64,000 bases of DNA from contig CAZEDK010000001.1 in the NCBI GenBank assembly GCA_964511025.1, positions 24,191 through 88,190 of the forward strand, read 5' to 3'. Below, one piece after another: positions 16,580-62,126 of this stretch. Each line of letters opens with the position of its first letter. Positions within the stretch are counted from its first letter, which is position 1. Below the pieces are notes generated by a model that was given only the letters and a program-made list of their open reading frames with translations, searched no databases and was not told the origin of the DNA. Origin of the DNA: an uncultured Candidatus Peribacteria bacterium. Lineage in GTDB: Bacteria > Patescibacteriota > Gracilibacteria > UBA1369 > GWF2-33-10. Made by a program: the position numbers and the translations under genes.

Positions 16580-16924
16580 TTATTTCATAATAATATACGC
16601 AATTAGCACACCCAGAATAAGCCCAATACCAACCAAAGTCCATCTCTGATAAATTGTCTCTTTTTCTTCATCAGCATTCGCTAAATCAGCAAGTAAATTT
16701 GCGTTAATAATAATTTCTTCATCAGCATTTTTTTCTACCACATCAACAAAACTATGTTTCGCAACCAACTCAACGAATTTTCCAAATTTAATGATAACCT
16801 TAGTCTCTGCGCTCACTTCAACTTTTTTTACTAAAACGTCTTCTTCAATATGATGCACCTTAAACCCAACTTTCTCATCAGGATTTTTTTCTTCCGGAAT
16901 AGATTTTAAATTAATATCTGACAT
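16580..16924 (-). CDS. Hypothetical C-terminally anchored small protein
   Basis: 114-aa ORF with an ATG start. Acidic body with a C-terminal TM helix (WTLVGIGLILGVLIAYIIM). No recognisable family. Confidence 0.5.
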   Translation of the reverse strand: MSDINLKSIPEEKNPDEKVGFKVHHIEEDVLVKKVEVSAETKVIIKFGKFVELVAKHSFVDVVEKNADEEIIINANLLADLANADEEKETIYQRWTLVGIGLILGVLIAYIIMK

Positions 16925-16953: not shown

Positions 16954-17157
16954 CTCTCAGTTCTCAACTCTCAGTTCTCAACTCTCAGCTCTCAGCTCTC
17001 AGCTCTCAACTCTCAGTTCTCAGCTCTCAGTTCTCAGCTCTCAGTTCTCAACTCTCAGTTCTCAGCTCTCAGTTCTCAGCTCTCAGCTCTCTCAGTCCCA
17101 AAGGGACCCCCTTGGGGCTCTCAGCTCTCAGCTCTCAGTTCTCAACTCTCAGTTCTC
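16954..17157. repeat. Heptanucleotide tandem array (CTCAGYT/CTCAACT, about 29 units) split by a GC-rich palindrome
   Basis: Read directly: ctcagtt ctcaact ctcagtt ctcaact ctcagct ctcagct … The central sequence CCCAAAGGGACCCCCTTGGGG lies at about 17097-17117. The array produces the spurious SQLSALSSQ ORFs in the track. Confidence 0.9.
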
Positions 17158-18166
17158 TATAAAAACCCTGCGCTATTTTACCTGCATTTTCCAATAACTG
17201 CAAAGCAGATTGAAAAGTTTGCATACCTTCTTTTTGTCCAATTTGCATTAACGAATAAATTTGTTTTGTTTTACCTTCGGCAATGCAGTTTTTGATACCG
17301 CTGCTTGCCATCATCACTTCACACGCAAGTATTCTGCGACTGTTATCTTTCGAAGCTATCAAATTTTGCGAAACAACACCTGCCAAAGTTGAAGACAGTT
17401 GCGTTTTGACCTGAACCTGCTGTGCTTCAGGAAAAACATCAATGATCCTGTCAATAGTTTGAGGTGCATCAATTGTATGCAAAGTTGAGAAAACCAGATG
17501 ACCGGTTTCAGCAAGAGTCAAAGCCGCTGAAATTGTTTCATAGTCACGCATTTCACCAATCATGACAACATCAGGATCCTCCCTGAGAGAAGATCTTATA
17601 GCATCCAAAAATGAAGAAGTATGATGACCTACCTCTCTTTGTGTAATCATAGCTTTTTTGCTTGTATGAAGAAATTCAATTGGGTCTTCGACAGTTACTA
17701 TGTGACAGGCTCTGTTTTGATTAATTAGATCAATAAGAGAAGCCAAAGTAGTACTTTTACCATTACCTGTAGGACCTGTAACCAGAACTAAACCTTTATT
17801 TAGAGTTGCAAAAGTTTTAACTGAATCCGGTAAATTCAAAGTGTTAATGTCTGGTACAACAGTTGGTATCACTCGAAAAGCCATGCAGTATCCTAAATAA
17901 TCATTATAAATATTGACTCGAAACCTTCCAAGTCCAGGAAGCTCGTAAGCTATATCAAGATCATGTTTAATAGAAAAACTATCTTTTTTATCACCCAAAA
18001 TTTCATCAATAAAAGCTTTGACATCTTCCGATTTAAGAGCGTCAATATTTGATGGGCGATATAAACTGCCATTACTAAGTCTTATTGTTGGCACGTGAGC
18101 AGCTTTAAAATGCACATCAGAAGCTTTGTGCTCTACAACTTGTTTGAGAATTTCTTTAAAATCCAT
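17135..18166 (-). CDS. pilT: Type IV pilus retraction ATPase PilT
   Basis: 343 aa. Walker A GPTGNGKSTT, MIGEMRD, and FSTLHT (His box). The size and the absence of an N-terminal GspE domain fit PilT. Confidence 0.9.
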   Translation of the reverse strand: MDFKEILKQVVEHKASDVHFKAAHVPTIRLSNGSLYRPSNIDALKSEDVKAFIDEILGDKKDSFSIKHDLDIAYELPGLGRFRVNIYNDYLGYCMAFRVIPTVVPDINTLNLPDSVKTFATLNKGLVLVTGPTGNGKSTTLASLIDLINQNRACHIVTVEDPIEFLHTSKKAMITQREVGHHTSSFLDAIRSSLREDPDVVMIGEMRDYETISAALTLAETGHLVFSTLHTIDAPQTIDRIIDVFPEAQQVQVKTQLSSTLAGVVSQNLIASKDNSRRILACEVMMASSGIKNCIAEGKTKQIYSLMQIGQKEGMQTFQSALQLLENAGKIAQGFYRELRVEN

Positions 18167-18252: not shown

Positions 18253-18301
18253 TCTTCACCTTAATACTTAATACTAACCCCATTATACTTAATACGACTC
18301 T

Positions 18302-33575: not shown

Positions 33576-33583
33576 TGCAGTTG

Positions 33584-33624
33584 TTAGTTATTAGTCTTTA
33601 GTTATTAGTCTTTAGTCTTTAGTT
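33584..33624. repeat. Heptanucleotide tandem array (TTAGTTA/TTAGTCT, about 6 units) abutting a start codon
   Basis: ttagtta ttagtct ttagtta ttagtct ttagtct ttagtt, immediately followed by the ATG at 33625. Confidence 0.85.
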
Positions 33625-34044
33625 ATGGAAAGAATAAATACAGTTGGAGGAATTTTATACAGAATTGAGAATGATAAAATTTTATATTTATTACTTCAAT
33701 ATCCTGATAAAGCATGGGGATTTCCAAAAGGGATTCAAGATGAAGGCGAAACTCTTGAACAAACCGCAAAACGAGAAATCTGGGAAGAAACAGGAATAAA
33801 AAATATCGAATTAAACGTAAATCATAAATTTGAATTCGATTATTTTTGCACTTACAACGACATTAAATATCATAAATTCGCTACTCTTTTTTTGGCAAAA
33901 TCTGACACAAAAGAAATCATAATTTCAGATGAGCACTTAGATTCCGAGTGGCAGACTTTTGAAAAAGCTTTGAAGAAATTAACTTATGAAAATAATAAAG
34001 AGATTTTGAGAAAAGCTAATTCTATTTTGTTAAAAATTCGTTAA
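33625..34044 (+). CDS. NUDIX hydrolase
   Basis: NUDIX box GFPKGIQDEGETLEQTAKREIWEETGI. Confidence 0.85.
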   Translation: MERINTVGGILYRIENDKILYLLLQYPDKAWGFPKGIQDEGETLEQTAKREIWEETGIKNIELNVNHKFEFDYFCTYNDIKYHKFATLFLAKSDTKEIIISDEHLDSEWQTFEKALKKLTYENNKEILRKANSILLKIR

Positions 34045-34490: not shown

Positions 34491-37340
34491 ATGATCCACA
34501 CCCTTTCCACCTTCCCAAAAGATCCAAACATTGATTATAAAGGAATCGGTTTACTTAATGACGCTCAAGAATTTCTCAAAATCAAAACTATTTCAGAAAT
34601 AAGAGCTGTTAAGAAGTTTTATCTCGAAGGTGTGAATGATGAAGAACTTTTGAAATTAAAAGATAAATTACTGGTTGAAGAAGTTTGGCAAGATTTCACG
34701 GTTGATAAAGATTTTTATAACAATCATCCAAATAAAATTGAAGTAGCTTTCAGAAAAGGCATGATGAACCCTGAGGTTCGAAGTCTTCTTGAAACCGCAC
34801 ATGAATTAGGTGTAACAAATTTACAAGCTGCAGATACATGCTGGGTCTACTATTTCTTTGGAAAAAATATAGATCAGAAAGAAATAGATAGCGTGATCAA
34901 TAAACTTGTAATGAATTCAACTACTGAAGAGATCAGAAAAGAGAATCCAGTAACACTTATAATTGAAGGATCAGAACACGAAATTGAAATTGTAAAAGTA
35001 AGAGAAATGAGTGATGAAGAACTTATGAAACTTTCAAAAAACACATTGTTTTTGACGCTCGATGAAATGCATACGATACAGAATTTCTTCAAGAATTTAG
35101 GTCGAGATCCATATGACTGTGAACTTGAAGTTTTGGCACAAAGCTGGTCAGAACACTGCGGACATAAGACTTTCAAAGCCAAACTTACAATCGACGGAAA
35201 AGAAGTTGAACCTCTATATCGAAGGCTCAAAAATGCGACGAAAGAAATCAATCACCCAAATGTAGTTTCAGCTTTCGTGGATAATTCCGGAGTGTGGAAA
35301 TTTGATGATAATTATGGAATATGTGGGAAAGTTGAGACTCACAATTCTCCTTCTGCTCTAGATCCATTTGGTGGAGCTGCAACAGGTAGCGGTGGAGTTT
35401 TCAGAGACATTGTTGGAACTGGTAAAGGAGCGAAAACAATTGCTTCAACTGATATATTTTGTGTAGGACAACCTGATATGGATGAATCTAAAATTCCAGA
35501 AGGATGCAAACATCCAAGATTTATTTTAAAAGGTTTGGTACGAGGTGTTTCCTCTTATGGGAATCCAATGGGTATTCCTACAACCAATGGCTCAGTACAT
35601 TTCCACGAAGATTTCAGATGCAAACCTACTGTAATTGTTGGAGCTTATGGATTAATAAAATTAGATAGAGCACAAAAAGGAGAAGCACAGGCTGGAAATT
35701 TGATCATGACTCTTGGTGGGAAAACAGGTCGTGATGGAATTCATGGCGCTACTTTTTCAAGCGCTGAAATGACAGGTGAAACATCTACAGTCAATTCTAC
35801 AGCAGTTCAAATTGGAGATCCGATTCAAGAAAAAAAAGTTTTTGATGCGATTTTGGATTTATCTGATCAGAATTTGATTAACGCAATTACAGATTGCGGG
35901 GCTGGAGGATTCTCATCAGCAATTGGTGAAATGGGAGCTATCACTGGAGTTGATGTTGAAATTTCAAAAGCTCCTCTCAAGTATAATGGACTTGCTCCAT
36001 GGGAAATCTGGCTTTCTGAGAGTCAAGAAAGAATGATCATTGCTGTTGATGGAAATAATTTAGATAAAATTCAAAAAGTTCTAGACAAACACTCCGTTGA
36101 AGGAGTTGTTTTGGGTAAATGTACCGAAGATGCTCAGTTAAAAATTACTTATAAAGGCAAAACTCTCGTTGATCTTCCAATGGAATTTGTTCATGAAGGA
36201 CTTAGTCAATTGAATCTTGAAGCGCATTTTGAAAAATCGAATTTTCCAGATCCGAGCGAAAATGAACTTATAAAAGAAAACTATACAGAAAGTTTACACA
36301 AAGTTTTGTCTCACCCGAATGTGTGCAGCAAAGAACCAATAATTGTAAGATATGATCACAATGTTCAGGGTACGGAAGTTCAGATGCCAATTTGTGGAAA
36401 CAAACATATTGGAGTCAATAATTCCAGCGTCCTTGAGCCTATTTTGGGTCATGGCAAGGGAATGATTATTTCTCATGGTTTAAATCCAATTTTAAATCGT
36501 ATTGATCCATATTTAGGTTCAAAATGGGCAATTTTTGAAGCTGTTTCCAACGCAATTTGCCAAGGAGCAAATCCCGAAAACACAGCTCTTATCGATAATT
36601 TCATTTGGCCAAAACCTGATAGTAAATTCATCGCTGACTTAAGTTTATCGATTGATGCCTGCTGTGATGTTTCAAAAATTTTCAAAATGCCATTTATATC
36701 TGGCAAAGACAGTCTGAGCTCGACATACAGAAAAGGTGATTTGACCGTTCATATTCCACCTGTGCTTTGTATTTCAACATTTGGGGTGGTGGATGATATT
36801 ACTAAAACAATTTCATCTCCATTCAAGAAAGCAGGGAATAAAATTTTATTAATTGGCGAGACAAAAGCTGAAATGGGAGGATCAATTTATTATGATATTA
36901 ATGGATACATTGGATCAAAAGTCCCAGATATCAATACTCAAATAGCATTAAAAACGTACAAAGCAATTTACAAAGCAATTCAGGAAGGTTTGATTAAATC
37001 TTGCCAAGATGTGAGTGAAGGAGGATTAGCGACAGCTGTGACTGAAATGTGTTTTGGATTTGATCTATGTGCTGAAATTGAATTAAATAAACTCTCAGTT
37101 CTCAGTTCTCAGTTCTCAGTTCTATTCTCAGAGAGTCCCGCCAGATTCATTTGCGAGGTAGAGACAAAAGATCTTTTGTCTCTAAAAGAAATTTTTGGAG
37201 ACATAGCTGTGAATATTATTGGTGAAATAAATAATTCAGATGAAATCGTTTTCAAAAGTAATGATGAAATTTTAATTCAAGATAAACGAGCAAATTTCAA
37301 AAAATCATGGCAACAACCAATGAGGAAGGTGTTTGGATAA
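34491..37340 (+). CDS. purL: Phosphoribosylformylglycinamidine synthase subunit PurL, with an N-terminal extension resembling PurS
   Basis: 949 aa. WSEHCGHKTF, ETHNSPSALDPFGGAATG and GKDSLS are PurL signatures. The extra about 200 N-terminal residues are discussed in the findings. Confidence 0.93.
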   Translation: MIHTLSTFPKDPNIDYKGIGLLNDAQEFLKIKTISEIRAVKKFYLEGVNDEELLKLKDKLLVEEVWQDFTVDKDFYNNHPNKIEVAFRKGMMNPEVRSLLETAHELGVTNLQAADTCWVYYFFGKNIDQKEIDSVINKLVMNSTTEEIRKENPVTLIIEGSEHEIEIVKVREMSDEELMKLSKNTLFLTLDEMHTIQNFFKNLGRDPYDCELEVLAQSWSEHCGHKTFKAKLTIDGKEVEPLYRRLKNATKEINHPNVVSAFVDNSGVWKFDDNYGICGKVETHNSPSALDPFGGAATGSGGVFRDIVGTGKGAKTIASTDIFCVGQPDMDESKIPEGCKHPRFILKGLVRGVSSYGNPMGIPTTNGSVHFHEDFRCKPTVIVGAYGLIKLDRAQKGEAQAGNLIMTLGGKTGRDGIHGATFSSAEMTGETSTVNSTAVQIGDPIQEKKVFDAILDLSDQNLINAITDCGAGGFSSAIGEMGAITGVDVEISKAPLKYNGLAPWEIWLSESQERMIIAVDGNNLDKIQKVLDKHSVEGVVLGKCTEDAQLKITYKGKTLVDLPMEFVHEGLSQLNLEAHFEKSNFPDPSENELIKENYTESLHKVLSHPNVCSKEPIIVRYDHNVQGTEVQMPICGNKHIGVNNSSVLEPILGHGKGMIISHGLNPILNRIDPYLGSKWAIFEAVSNAICQGANPENTALIDNFIWPKPDSKFIADLSLSIDACCDVSKIFKMPFISGKDSLSSTYRKGDLTVHIPPVLCISTFGVVDDITKTISSPFKKAGNKILLIGETKAEMGGSIYYDINGYIGSKVPDINTQIALKTYKAIYKAIQEGLIKSCQDVSEGGLATAVTEMCFGFDLCAEIELNKLSVLSSQFSVLFSESPARFICEVETKDLLSLKEIFGDIAVNIIGEINNSDEIVFKSNDEILIQDKRANFKKSWQQPMRKVFG
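37092..37133 (+). repeat. Heptanucleotide array (CTCAGTT x4-5) inserted in frame near the purL 3' end
   Basis: ctctcagttctcagttctcagttctcagttctattctcag encodes LSVLSSQFSVLFS. It belongs to the same unit family as 16954-17157 and 61651-61702. Confidence 0.85.
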
Positions 37341-39596: not shown

Positions 39597-39744
39597 AAAT
39601 TTATTAATTTAGCAAATAAATAACACATATAGCATAACATCTCTCTCTCTCTGTCAACATTAATCCAAATTTATGTTGTAATATCGTTTCCACCATCAAT
39701 CTAAATCTTTTATAATAATAGCGAGACTCACACAAAATTTGCTA

Positions 39745-39770
39745 AAAACTAAAGACTAACAACTAAAAAC
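39745..39770. repeat. Short heptanucleotide array (reverse complement of TTAGTTG/TTAGTCT/TTAGTTT) just upstream of purQ
   Basis: aaaaactaaagactaacaactaaaaac. Same unit family as 33584-33624, in the opposite orientation. Confidence 0.7.
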
Positions 39771-39777
39771 TTCCCCC

Positions 39778-53082: not shown

Positions 53083-53154
53083 AGTACAAAGGAAAAAGTA
53101 CAAAGGATAAAAAAACTTTATCCTTTATCCCTTATCCTTTTATCTTAAATCAAA

Positions 53155-60939: not shown

Positions 60940-61002
60940 AAAATACAGGGATTAGGGATAAAAATACAGGGATTAGGGATAAAAATACAGGGATTAGGGA
61001 TA
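60940..61002. repeat. 21-bp tandem repeat x3 (AAAATACAGGGATTAGGGATA) between the two tRNA genes
   Basis: Read directly; the period is 21 (TACAGGG at 60944, 60965 and 60986). Each unit contains the heptamers AGGGATT and AGGGATA. Confidence 0.9.
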
Positions 61003-61077
61003 AGTATAAAGTATTAAGGGAAATGTGGAAGAAAAGCCCTTTATACATTATACCAATCCCTATATACTTAAAAAAAT

Positions 61078-61178: not shown

Positions 61179-62126
61179 CTAGAATCTATTTATAACACTC
61201 CCTCCACCTATAGCAATAGCATGAGACGCATTTTTTGGCACATATACTTCAATTTCATGTTCTTTTAAAAGTTTCCTGATTGCATCCAAAATCTCTTCCA
61301 TCAAAATCAATTTTCCGACCAATATCACTTCTTTTACCATATAAGCTTTTGTGGCAAATATGATATTGGTTGCTATAGCCTGAGCAACTAAATTAACTAT
61401 ACCTACAGCTAAATCAGCCTTACTAAAATCAATATTTCTAACTAATTTCCCCAAATTTGAAGCTGTATTATCTTGCGACACAATACCTATTGAAGATCCA
61501 ACTATCTCACCAACACTTAAATCTACTTTTTTAATATCCCCCTTTTTAAACATTTCCTTCAGCTTCAAAATATCTGTTTCACCAAGTATTTCTTTGCACA
61601 AACCCAAAAAAGTTCCACCACCAATCCCCGTGCCACCAATATGCTGGACAGAGAGCTGAGAGCTGAGAGCTGAGAACTGAGAACTGAGAACTGAGAACTG
61701 AGTTCGCGGAGTATTTACTTCCACCTCAGCTCTCAGCTCCCCGCCAGAATGATGTCGGGCTGGTCGACTCTCAGTTCTAACTAAAACCATACATGTCCCC
61801 GTCCCCATACTAACCGTCAAGAACTTATCTTCTCTCAAATCATTTTTTGCTAAATAATAAGCTCCTCTGCCGATAGCATCTATTTCTGGAATTTTAGTTA
61901 TATCTATATTAGATATGCTATTTTCAAAAAATTGTGTTTTACCACCTGTAATAAATATTTTATCTATATTTTTCAAAGAAATTTTGCTTTTTGTAAAAAA
62001 ATCTCTTACCGAATTAACAGATTTAAACTGAAGCGCTTCAAAACTCTTTATTTCATTTATTAAAGAATTTTTCCATACAACCATATCAACAGTAGACGCC
62101 CCAAAATCAAAAGAATAATACTTCAT
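61179..62126 (-). CDS. coaW: Type II pantothenate kinase-like ASKHA ATPase (CoaW/fumble family) carrying an in-frame repeat insertion
   Basis: DFGASTVD (phosphate-1), ITGGK, VSMGTGTC and GGTGIGGGTFLGL, plus a C-terminal AIAIGGG. The order matches staphylococcal-type PanK. About 40 extra residues lie between GTGT and GGTGIGGG. Confidence 0.78.
   Translation of the reverse strand: MKYYSFDFGASTVDMVVWKNSLINEIKSFEALQFKSVNSVRDFFTKSKISLKNIDKIFITGGKTQFFENSISNIDITKIPEIDAIGRGAYYLAKNDLREDKFLTVSMGTGTCMVLVRTESRPARHHSGGELRAEVEVNTPRTQFSVLSSQFSALSSQLSVQHIGGTGIGGGTFLGLCKEILGETDILKLKEMFKKGDIKKVDLSVGEIVGSSIGIVSQDNTASNLGKLVRNIDFSKADLAVGIVNLVAQAIATNIIFATKAYMVKEVILVGKLILMEEILDAIRKLLKEHEIEVYVPKNASHAIAIGGGSVINRF
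61645..61781. repeat. Composite repeat insertion inside coaW (heptamer array, inverted arm, GC-rich 24-nt core)
   Basis: AGCTGAG/AACTGAG x7 at 61651-61702. Inverted arm CTCAGCTCTCAGCTC at 61725-61739. Core CCCGCCAG-N7-TCGGGCTGG at 61740-61763. CTCTCAGTTCT at 61768-61778. Confidence 0.85.

Follow-up and report, generated by a model that had tools for sequence, protein, structure and literature searches.

The array under study lies in the spacer that separates pilT from its downstream neighbour, both genes being encoded on the minus strand, in a window of 64,000 nt (C1:24191-88190 of the assembly; positions are those of the window unless a contig is named). TRF resolved positions 16954-17157 as a true tandem array of ~26 heptamers (CTCAGTT, CTCAGCT and CTCAACT), 204 nt in total, which a GC-rich palindrome splits into parts A and B (Table 1). 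The initial annotation had described the array, its unit types, its spacer and the palindrome as we find them, and put the number of heptamers at about 29. On the minus (transcribed) strand part A reads AACTGAG/AGCTGAG/AGTTGAG, and a 14-nt super-period matches the array better than the 7-nt period (93% versus 83%), given the alternation of CTCAGTT with either CTCAGCT or CTCAACT. Part B codes for the terminal seven residues of PilT (RELRVEN) and for its TGA stop codon (17135-17137), and the C-terminal tail of this protein is ~10 residues longer than in orthologues of the same family. The closest PilT relatives in a contig search were just 52% identical and were spread across phyla. Downstream of the array, the 114-aa ORF starts at 16924, 29 nt away. 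Its orthologues likewise come after pilT in G001 and G002, which represent the family's two remaining genera (the present genome is G000).

All three genera of the family carry an array in this spacer, each with a different unit: CTCAGYT over 204 nt in G000, a GGAATTA-type unit over ~35 nt in G001, and GAATTCT/TTAAGAA over ~45 nt in G002. No heptamer array was found after pilT in G004 and G005, which belong to other families.

Table 1 Positions of the arrays, the neighbouring genes and the PF05635 cassettes (window coordinates; contig given where outside the window).
Feature	Position	Strand	Context
114-aa ORF	16580..16924	-	Downstream of the array; no Pfam match
Heptamer array part A, 19.7 units CTCAGTT/CTCAGCT/CTCAACT, 14-nt super-period (TRF)	16954..17091		pilT spacer
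21-nt GC-rich palindrome CCCAAAGGGACCCCCTTGGGG	17097..17117		Between array parts A and B
Heptamer array part B, 5.9 units (TRF)	17117..17157		pilT spacer and pilT 3' end
PilT-like ATPase gene (PF00437)	17135..18166	-	
CTTAATA units and motif CCCATTATACTTAATAC	18260..18296		Upstream of groEL, groES
TTAGTTA/TTAGTCT array	33579..33624		Fills the entire DUF520-NUDIX spacer; touches the ATG at 33625
CTCAGTT array	37093..37131		In frame, 3' part of purL
CTAAAAA/CTAAAGA/CTAACAA array	39742..39771		Ends 6 nt upstream of a PurQ-type (amidotransferase) gene
CTTTATC-family array	53116..53146		rplJ-rplL spacer
21-nt x3 perfect repeat (heptamers AAAATAC AGGGATT AGGGATA)	60940..61003		Fills part of a tRNA-tRNA spacer
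Inverted CTCAGYT-family pair (GAGAGCT/GAGAACT units, 23-nt loop, CTCAGCT units)	61651..61739		In frame in a pantothenate-kinase-like gene
PF05635 cassette, arms TTAAGAG/AACTGAG/AGCTGAG versus >390 nt CTCAGYT (with palindrome and N run)	C9:36717-37070		
PF05635 cassette, arms AAGTATT / CTTAATA	C20:28249-28623		Downstream of gyrB
PF05635 cassette, arms GTACTTG / CAAGTAC	C38:9840-10196		leuC-leuD

Every further period-7 array that had been listed for the window (18261-18296, 33584-33624, 39745-39770, 53118-53146 and 60940-61002) is real and was confirmed at or near those positions, and so were both copies of the related motif CCCATTATACTTAATAC, at ~18279 and ~20469. Two CTCAGYT arrays had been missed, the one in purL and the inverted pair in the pantothenate-kinase-like gene, the latter an ORF-less hairpin with heptamer arms.

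The palindrome had been read as interrupting the array. We found it to be a repeated element with 12 copies in the genome at no more than two mismatches, 11 of them nested in CTCAGYT arrays and 10 of these exact. Nine of the ten exact copies share an identical junction (ctctcagt on the left, ctctca on the right), and the tenth, on C27, has ctctcg on its right side. The eleventh copy (C46) has one mismatch and an array on its left side only; the twelfth (C20:18951) differs at two positions and is not in an array. Tandem amplification accounts for part of the copy number, as higher-order tandem units of 38 or 52 nt contain some of the copies. A variant, CCCGAAGGGATCCCATTGGGA, 17/21 identical to CCCAAAGGGACCCCCTTGGGG, occurs at two sites, both within CTTTATC-family arrays, and here too the junction is constant. 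The palindrome was not found in the 120 other genomes of the order (121 searched, including this one), and the sequence around the composite arrays showed neither a target-site duplication nor conserved termini. We take the palindrome as a nested 21-nt hairpin element that is species-specific. A role as the intrinsic terminator of pilT was ruled out, as no T run follows the palindrome on the transcribed strand. A second GC-rich hairpin motif (CCCGCC...GGGC) lies in or beside heptamer arms at 37131-37150 and 61740-61765 of the window and at C38:9790-9830, in an arm of the C38 cassette. At C21:23440-23590, an inositol-monophosphatase-like gene contains three in-frame tandem units of palindrome and CTCAGYT heptamers, just before the conserved WxIDPIDGT.

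The arrays are real. In an independent assembly (the Logan assembly of run SRR4343435), the rplJ-rplL spacer including its array was identical at 1514/1514 bases, as were the 80 nt of the large array nearest its downstream gene. Short arrays and array flanks were therefore reproduced, but the exact length of the 204-nt array was not, since the Logan assembly breaks within it from both sides. Several contigs of the genome begin or end in heptamer arrays and one array contains an N run; because assemblies break inside arrays, the copy number of a long array is a lower bound or an estimate. These breaks, contig ends and the N run are what collapsed or chimeric repeats would also leave behind, yet such an artefact would hardly yield identical flanks in two assemblies, the same trait in independently assembled relatives and in-frame arrays within intact genes, and we consider it extremely improbable. 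Exact-protein look-ups matched a single sample, SRR4343435, with one look-up giving no match, and no match came from metagenome scans with either the unique flank or the palindrome junction (one scan each). The first 55 nt of C17, C18, C19 and C42 are a common AAGTATT-family array, and the 16S rRNA gene of C17 lies 880 nt from that end. No 23S rRNA gene was found in the assembly; a heptamer array, possibly an IVS, may mark the point at which the rRNA operon is broken.

Period-7 excess and array placement

We searched the whole assembly (1.56 Mb in 82 contigs, 32.6% G+C, 97% complete) for tandem repeats. At a TRF score of at least 50, period 7 and its multiples dominate, with 82 repeats at period 7, 40 at period 14 and 47 at period 21, compared with 1, 0 and 2 at the neighbouring periods 6, 8 and 9. 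Perfect repeats of at least three copies gave the same picture, with 59 at period 7 and none at periods 8-13, and a third-order Markov simulation of the genome produced none at period 7. The genome-wide enrichment on which the initial proposal depended is thus borne out. At a TRF score of at least 40, merging yielded 146 period-7 arrays (150 in 1564 kb in the cross-genome comparison). We counted ~42 unit families among them. Many are singletons, and the most numerous are AACTGAG/AGAGCTG (36 arrays), AAAGGAT (17), AAAAACT (15), ACCATAT (9) and AAGTACC (7). The 204-nt array is one of the ~36 arrays of the CTCAGYT family. Most arrays, this one among them, are solo, and ~17 inverted pairs with loops of 5-45 nt form ORF-less hairpins with heptamer arms.

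That the arrays sit at gene borders, as had been noted for the window, also holds genome-wide: 81 of the 146 lie outside genes or across gene borders in a genome that is ~10% non-coding (P ~1e-42, with a simple ORF call), ~30 overlap or touch a stop codon, and 35 end within 15 nt of a start codon. The other 65 lie inside ORFs, some of which encode conserved enzymes. Arrays at stop codons could act as contingency (phase-variation) loci, in which array length would switch C-terminal tails, stops or the expression of neighbours, and the stop and tail that the 204-nt array supplies to pilT are in line with this idea. However, every unit in the AACTGAG orientation contains a TGA, so that a change in copy number would hardly alter the pilT product, and housekeeping genes are flanked without pattern. 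Phase variation therefore strikes us as quite improbable.

The start-proximal arrays (≤15 nt) have a sense strand with 7% G, with C exceeding G in 23 and G exceeding C in 8 of them (p = 0.011), and the coding strands of the genome overall are G-rich. A Shine-Dalgarno-like core (GGAG, GAGG or AGGA, 4-18 nt upstream) was present in 65 of 1391 ORFs (5%). Judged by this count, Shine-Dalgarno pairing seems to be used little in this organism, and with so few ORFs carrying such a core, an array that replaces a leader need not abolish translation. It could be argued from the starts, the G-poor sense strand and the scarcity of Shine-Dalgarno-like cores that the arrays are cis-acting expression elements, that is, RNA-binding-protein or ribosome sites that control downstream translation, as proposed in a parallel case for the TAACTGA repeats of Beggiatoaceae (PMC4679880). 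We regard this as unlikely, given the many unrelated units, the occurrence of both orientations to the downstream gene inside single families and the arrays within ORFs, conserved enzymes included; the 204-nt array itself contains G on the mRNA strand and ends 29 nt from the start codon downstream. The orientation bias is explained equally well by selection against harmful orientations, and the G-poor bias beside starts fits either a filtering by tolerance or a TAACTGA-like leader function. Because a single family can contain both orientations, the units are unrelated to one another and some arrays stand in frame inside genes, we favour tolerance over a dedicated regulatory role.

Inverted heptamer arms around PF05635 genes

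A link of the heptamer arrays to a small gene family, which the initial annotation had missed, emerged from the S23p/PF05635 genes. Strong matches to this four-helix-bundle family number three both in this genome (129-138 bits) and in G002, and two in G001. All three proteins encoded here also match TIGR02436 (E = 1e-35 to 5e-38), and they match PDB 2GSC, the pentameric S23p of Xanthomonas campestris (E = 5e-24). All three genes lie between inverted heptamer arrays, each pair with its own unit (Table 1), and in minimum-free-energy folds the arms pair around the ORF in 3/3 cassettes with 34-61 long-range pairs. Three of three matching inverted arms cannot be coincidence, because only about one spacer in ten holds an array. 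The cassettes are located in protein-coding operons (leuC-leuD, after gyrB and beside ilvE), and none lies in 23S rRNA. An RNase III gene is present in the genome, and the paired arms are probably RNase III substrates. A 114-nt tandem repeat (x3.2) with a tRNA-like fragment, at C20:27834-28199, adjoins the cassette downstream of gyrB.

The same pattern recurs across the order. Inverted heptamer arms bracket 14 of the 17 stand-alone PF05635 genes examined, and the unit differs from case to case (three in G000, two in G001, one in G002, four in G035, three in G023 and one in G016). In a further G023 gene one flank is an arm and the opposite flank is an N gap. Two genes are unbracketed; one is without clear arms (G005:C4), and the other has a heptamer-armed hairpin adjacent to it (G002:C7). 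Arms that stay complementary while their unit changes point to selection on pairing, or copying of one arm from the other.

The arm units also recur among the solo arrays. The right arm of the C9 cassette and the 204-nt array share a 14-nt super-unit and the palindrome junction (166/182 aligned), although no PF05635 gene lies at the 16954-17157 locus. The CTTAATA units upstream of groEL and groES belong to the unit family of the C20 arms, and the genome's longest arrays and its contig-end arrays are likewise of cassette-arm families. Together the three cassette-arm families comprise 49 of the 146 arrays and 43% of array length. The unit of the pilT spacer array equals the unit of the genome's own cassette arms in G000 and also in G001, where it is the family of the arms of the C7 cassette.

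The leuC-leuD junction holds a cassette in both G000 (C38:9209-11652) and G001 (C52, locus L257). The two differ in PF05635 subtype (IAEG-type and IEEA-type) and in their arms, which speaks against vertical inheritance of this cassette; replacement or independent insertion is the likelier history. One possibility is that permissive junctions are repeatedly colonised, the other that resident arrays and cassettes undergo replacement.

Distribution across the order and origin of the arrays

We compared samples of genomes of the same order, some of the samples covering only 32-80 kb. All three genomes of the family hold ~10-12 arrays per 100 kb (besides the 150 in G000, the other two genera yielded 32 arrays over 278 kb and 42 over 335 kb, mostly with different units), compared with 2 arrays in 836 kb in seven genomes of other families and 4 in 976 kb in eight PF05635-free genomes of the order. 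Among 41 relatives, tandem CTCAGYT is confined to the three genomes of the family. Array richness is thus a heritable lineage trait, and this lineage-restricted distribution supports the earlier suggestion that a strict 7-nt period across different units has a common cause. Low G+C was ruled out as that cause, as array-rich genomes have 31-44% and array-poor genomes 37-50% G+C. A reverse transcriptase/DGR was likewise considered as the generator, given a reverse transcriptase in G000 beside a weak Avd-type match, but G001 and G002 have none, so it is not the common factor. The gene concerned lies at C12:6080-7175 beside a weak Avd-type four-helix-bundle ORF; the weak PF05635 matches beside reverse transcriptases are DGR Avd genes, and this locus probably represents a diversity-generating retroelement that has nothing to do with the heptamer trait.

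Strong PF05635 genes occur in 17 of the 121 genomes of the order, and array density follows their copy number. The seven genomes with two or more copies (G000, G001, G002, G023, G035, G087 and G090) hold 3-19 period-7 arrays per 100 kb, the one genome with a single copy (G005) has none in 200 kb, and the eight without a copy have a mean of 0.4 per 100 kb (Spearman rho 0.80, p = 2e-4 across 16 genomes, with kinship ignored). The samples of G023 and G035 deliberately took in cassette regions; without these regions G035 has ~5 and G023 ~20 arrays per 100 kb. Two contrast pairs were picked beforehand from PF05635 counts, and both came out in the predicted direction: within one genus, G087 (5 copies) has 6.3 arrays per 100 kb versus 1.4 in G078 (no copy), and within one family, G090 (2 copies) has 3.1 versus 0.45 in G003. 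G078 has two arrays despite the absence of a PF05635 gene.

We favour, with moderate confidence, the explanation that the 204-nt array is a solo, arm-type derivative of the IVS-like PF05635 cassettes, whose arms have spread, grown by slippage and been tolerated in spacers. The CTCAGYT family is the arm sequence of the IVS-like cassette on C9 of the same genome. Arm sequence would move to new sites by copying or recombination, giving rise to ORF-less armed hairpins and solo arrays, and slipped-strand mispairing would lengthen or shorten the arrays in steps of 7 and 14 nt. Arrays would persist where they are least harmful, in spacers, in G-poor orientation beside starts and in frame in protein loops. 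The visible effects of the 204-nt array, namely the final seven codons and stop of pilT and the nested 21-nt hairpin, would then be incidental, and as no inverted partner lies nearby, the array probably has no stem function. Against a cassette origin, about two thirds of the arrays belong to unit families without a cassette in this 97%-complete assembly, and G005 has a PF05635 gene without clear arms and no arrays; neither a transposase nor a copying mechanism for array spread was found.

It is also possible, although we advance it only tentatively, that the stand-alone S23p/PF05635 cassettes determine heptamer proliferation, with the pentameric four-helix-bundle protein or the processing of its heptamer-armed stem making, copying or stabilising arrays, and that STRR, GGGAATC, TAACTGA and rRNA IVS are forms of one widespread selfish element. 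Conversely, the causation might be reversed, with cassettes merely thriving in slippage-prone genomes. A related alternative is generic replication slippage, in which heptamers are favoured by the polymerase footprint (the Mrazek hypothesis), arrays arise in situ and cassettes are bystanders. The ~42 unit families with their many singletons, a 14-nt super-period that is typical of slippage or unequal exchange, and the arrays of the PF05635-free G078 are all consistent with it, and the idea has been published, as indicated by its citation in PMC4692102. However, it leaves unaccounted for the ~25-fold difference seen both among sister families and inside one genus, the inverted heptamer arms of 14 of the 17 PF05635 genes and the identity of the dominant families with cassette arms, and we consider it rather doubtful.

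For the cause of bacterial tandem heptamer repeats, the order offers a clean natural contrast, as sister families, and even the members of one genus, are with or without arrays, and array presence tracks one small gene family that is itself wrapped in heptamer arms, which makes the puzzle testable. For the annotation of CPR genomes it matters that arrays break assemblies, write C-terminal tails and stops, stand where ribosome-binding sites would be and enter conserved enzymes in frame.

Comparison with known systems

Tandem heptamers have been known in cyanobacteria since 1990, where the units of STRR1, STRR2 and STRR3 are CCCCAGT, TTGGTCA and CAACAGT. A scan of the present genome for tandem dimers of these three units found none. 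The arrays resemble STRR sequences in being dispersed tandem heptanucleotides and differ from them in that the described STRR units do not occur in tandem, so that the label STRR-like given in the initial annotation is fair as a description although the arrays are not members of the STRR family. None of the published units (STRR, Xanthomonas, Nostoc and TAACTGA) occurs in tandem in this genome. In Nostoc, small dispersed repeats are reportedly nested in heptamer repeats, a description said to be due to Elhai and colleagues in 2008; the 21-nt element, with its ~10 identical copies and constant junction in heptamers, is similar in arrangement and has no sequence relation to them.

The initial annotation named the STRR sequences of heterocystous cyanobacteria as the known case; heptamer over-representation is not peculiar, having been reported for many bacteria, as far as the account of Mrazek 2007 in PMC4692102 goes (see also PMC4679880). 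Xanthomonas has GGGAATC and Nostoc GGGGA(C/T)T heptanucleotide repeats (PMC4692102). Like these prokaryotic heptanucleotide long SSRs, the arrays described here show a period-7 excess, are mostly intergenic and fast-changing, and include many inverted pairs; unlike them, they have other units, ~42 families in a 1.56-Mb genome, many in-frame genic arrays and a CPR host. TAACTGA direct repeats, for which a role in expression has been proposed, occur in marine Beggiatoaceae, cyanobacteria and Bacteroidetes (PMC4679880). The present arrays share with these repeats a position a few nt from starts in a Shine-Dalgarno-poor genome, whereas here the units are many and the arrays point both ways relative to the downstream gene, with a bias to G-poor sense strands near starts. 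GAACTGA, the main unit of this genome, is one base away from TAACTGA, with 27 versus 0 tandem dimers.

Our literature search found no paper on such arrays in CPR bacteria, in line with the initial annotation, which knew of no such description for small-genome uncultivated bacteria, and no paper linking S23p genes to heptamer arrays in general. The heptamer papers (PMC4692102 and Mrazek) draw no S23p link, though the S23p structure 2GSC is from Xanthomonas campestris. What we describe is a known, unexplained class of repeats in a new lineage and in a richer variant, to which we add a reproducible, quantitative association of heptamer density with S23p/PF05635 cassettes, whose presence and absence alternate between close relatives.

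The closest counterpart of the cassettes is the ORF-bearing IVS of 23S rRNA. In Coxiella burnetii, this IVS has 428 nt, forms a stem of terminal inverted repeats, is excised by RNase III and contains an S23p ORF (PMC4990558). GACAGAT heptamers, whose number varies between strains, precede that ORF, and the element has been called selfish (PMC4990558). Like the IVS of Coxiella burnetii and Leptospira, the cassettes described here have a small PF05635/S23p ORF in an inverted-repeat stem, which in our case is predicted. Unlike the 23S IVS, they lie between protein-coding genes and not in helix 25 or 45 of 23S rRNA, their arms consist wholly of tandem heptamers and can exceed 100 nt, and arrays of the arm type stand alone at ~100 other sites of the genome.
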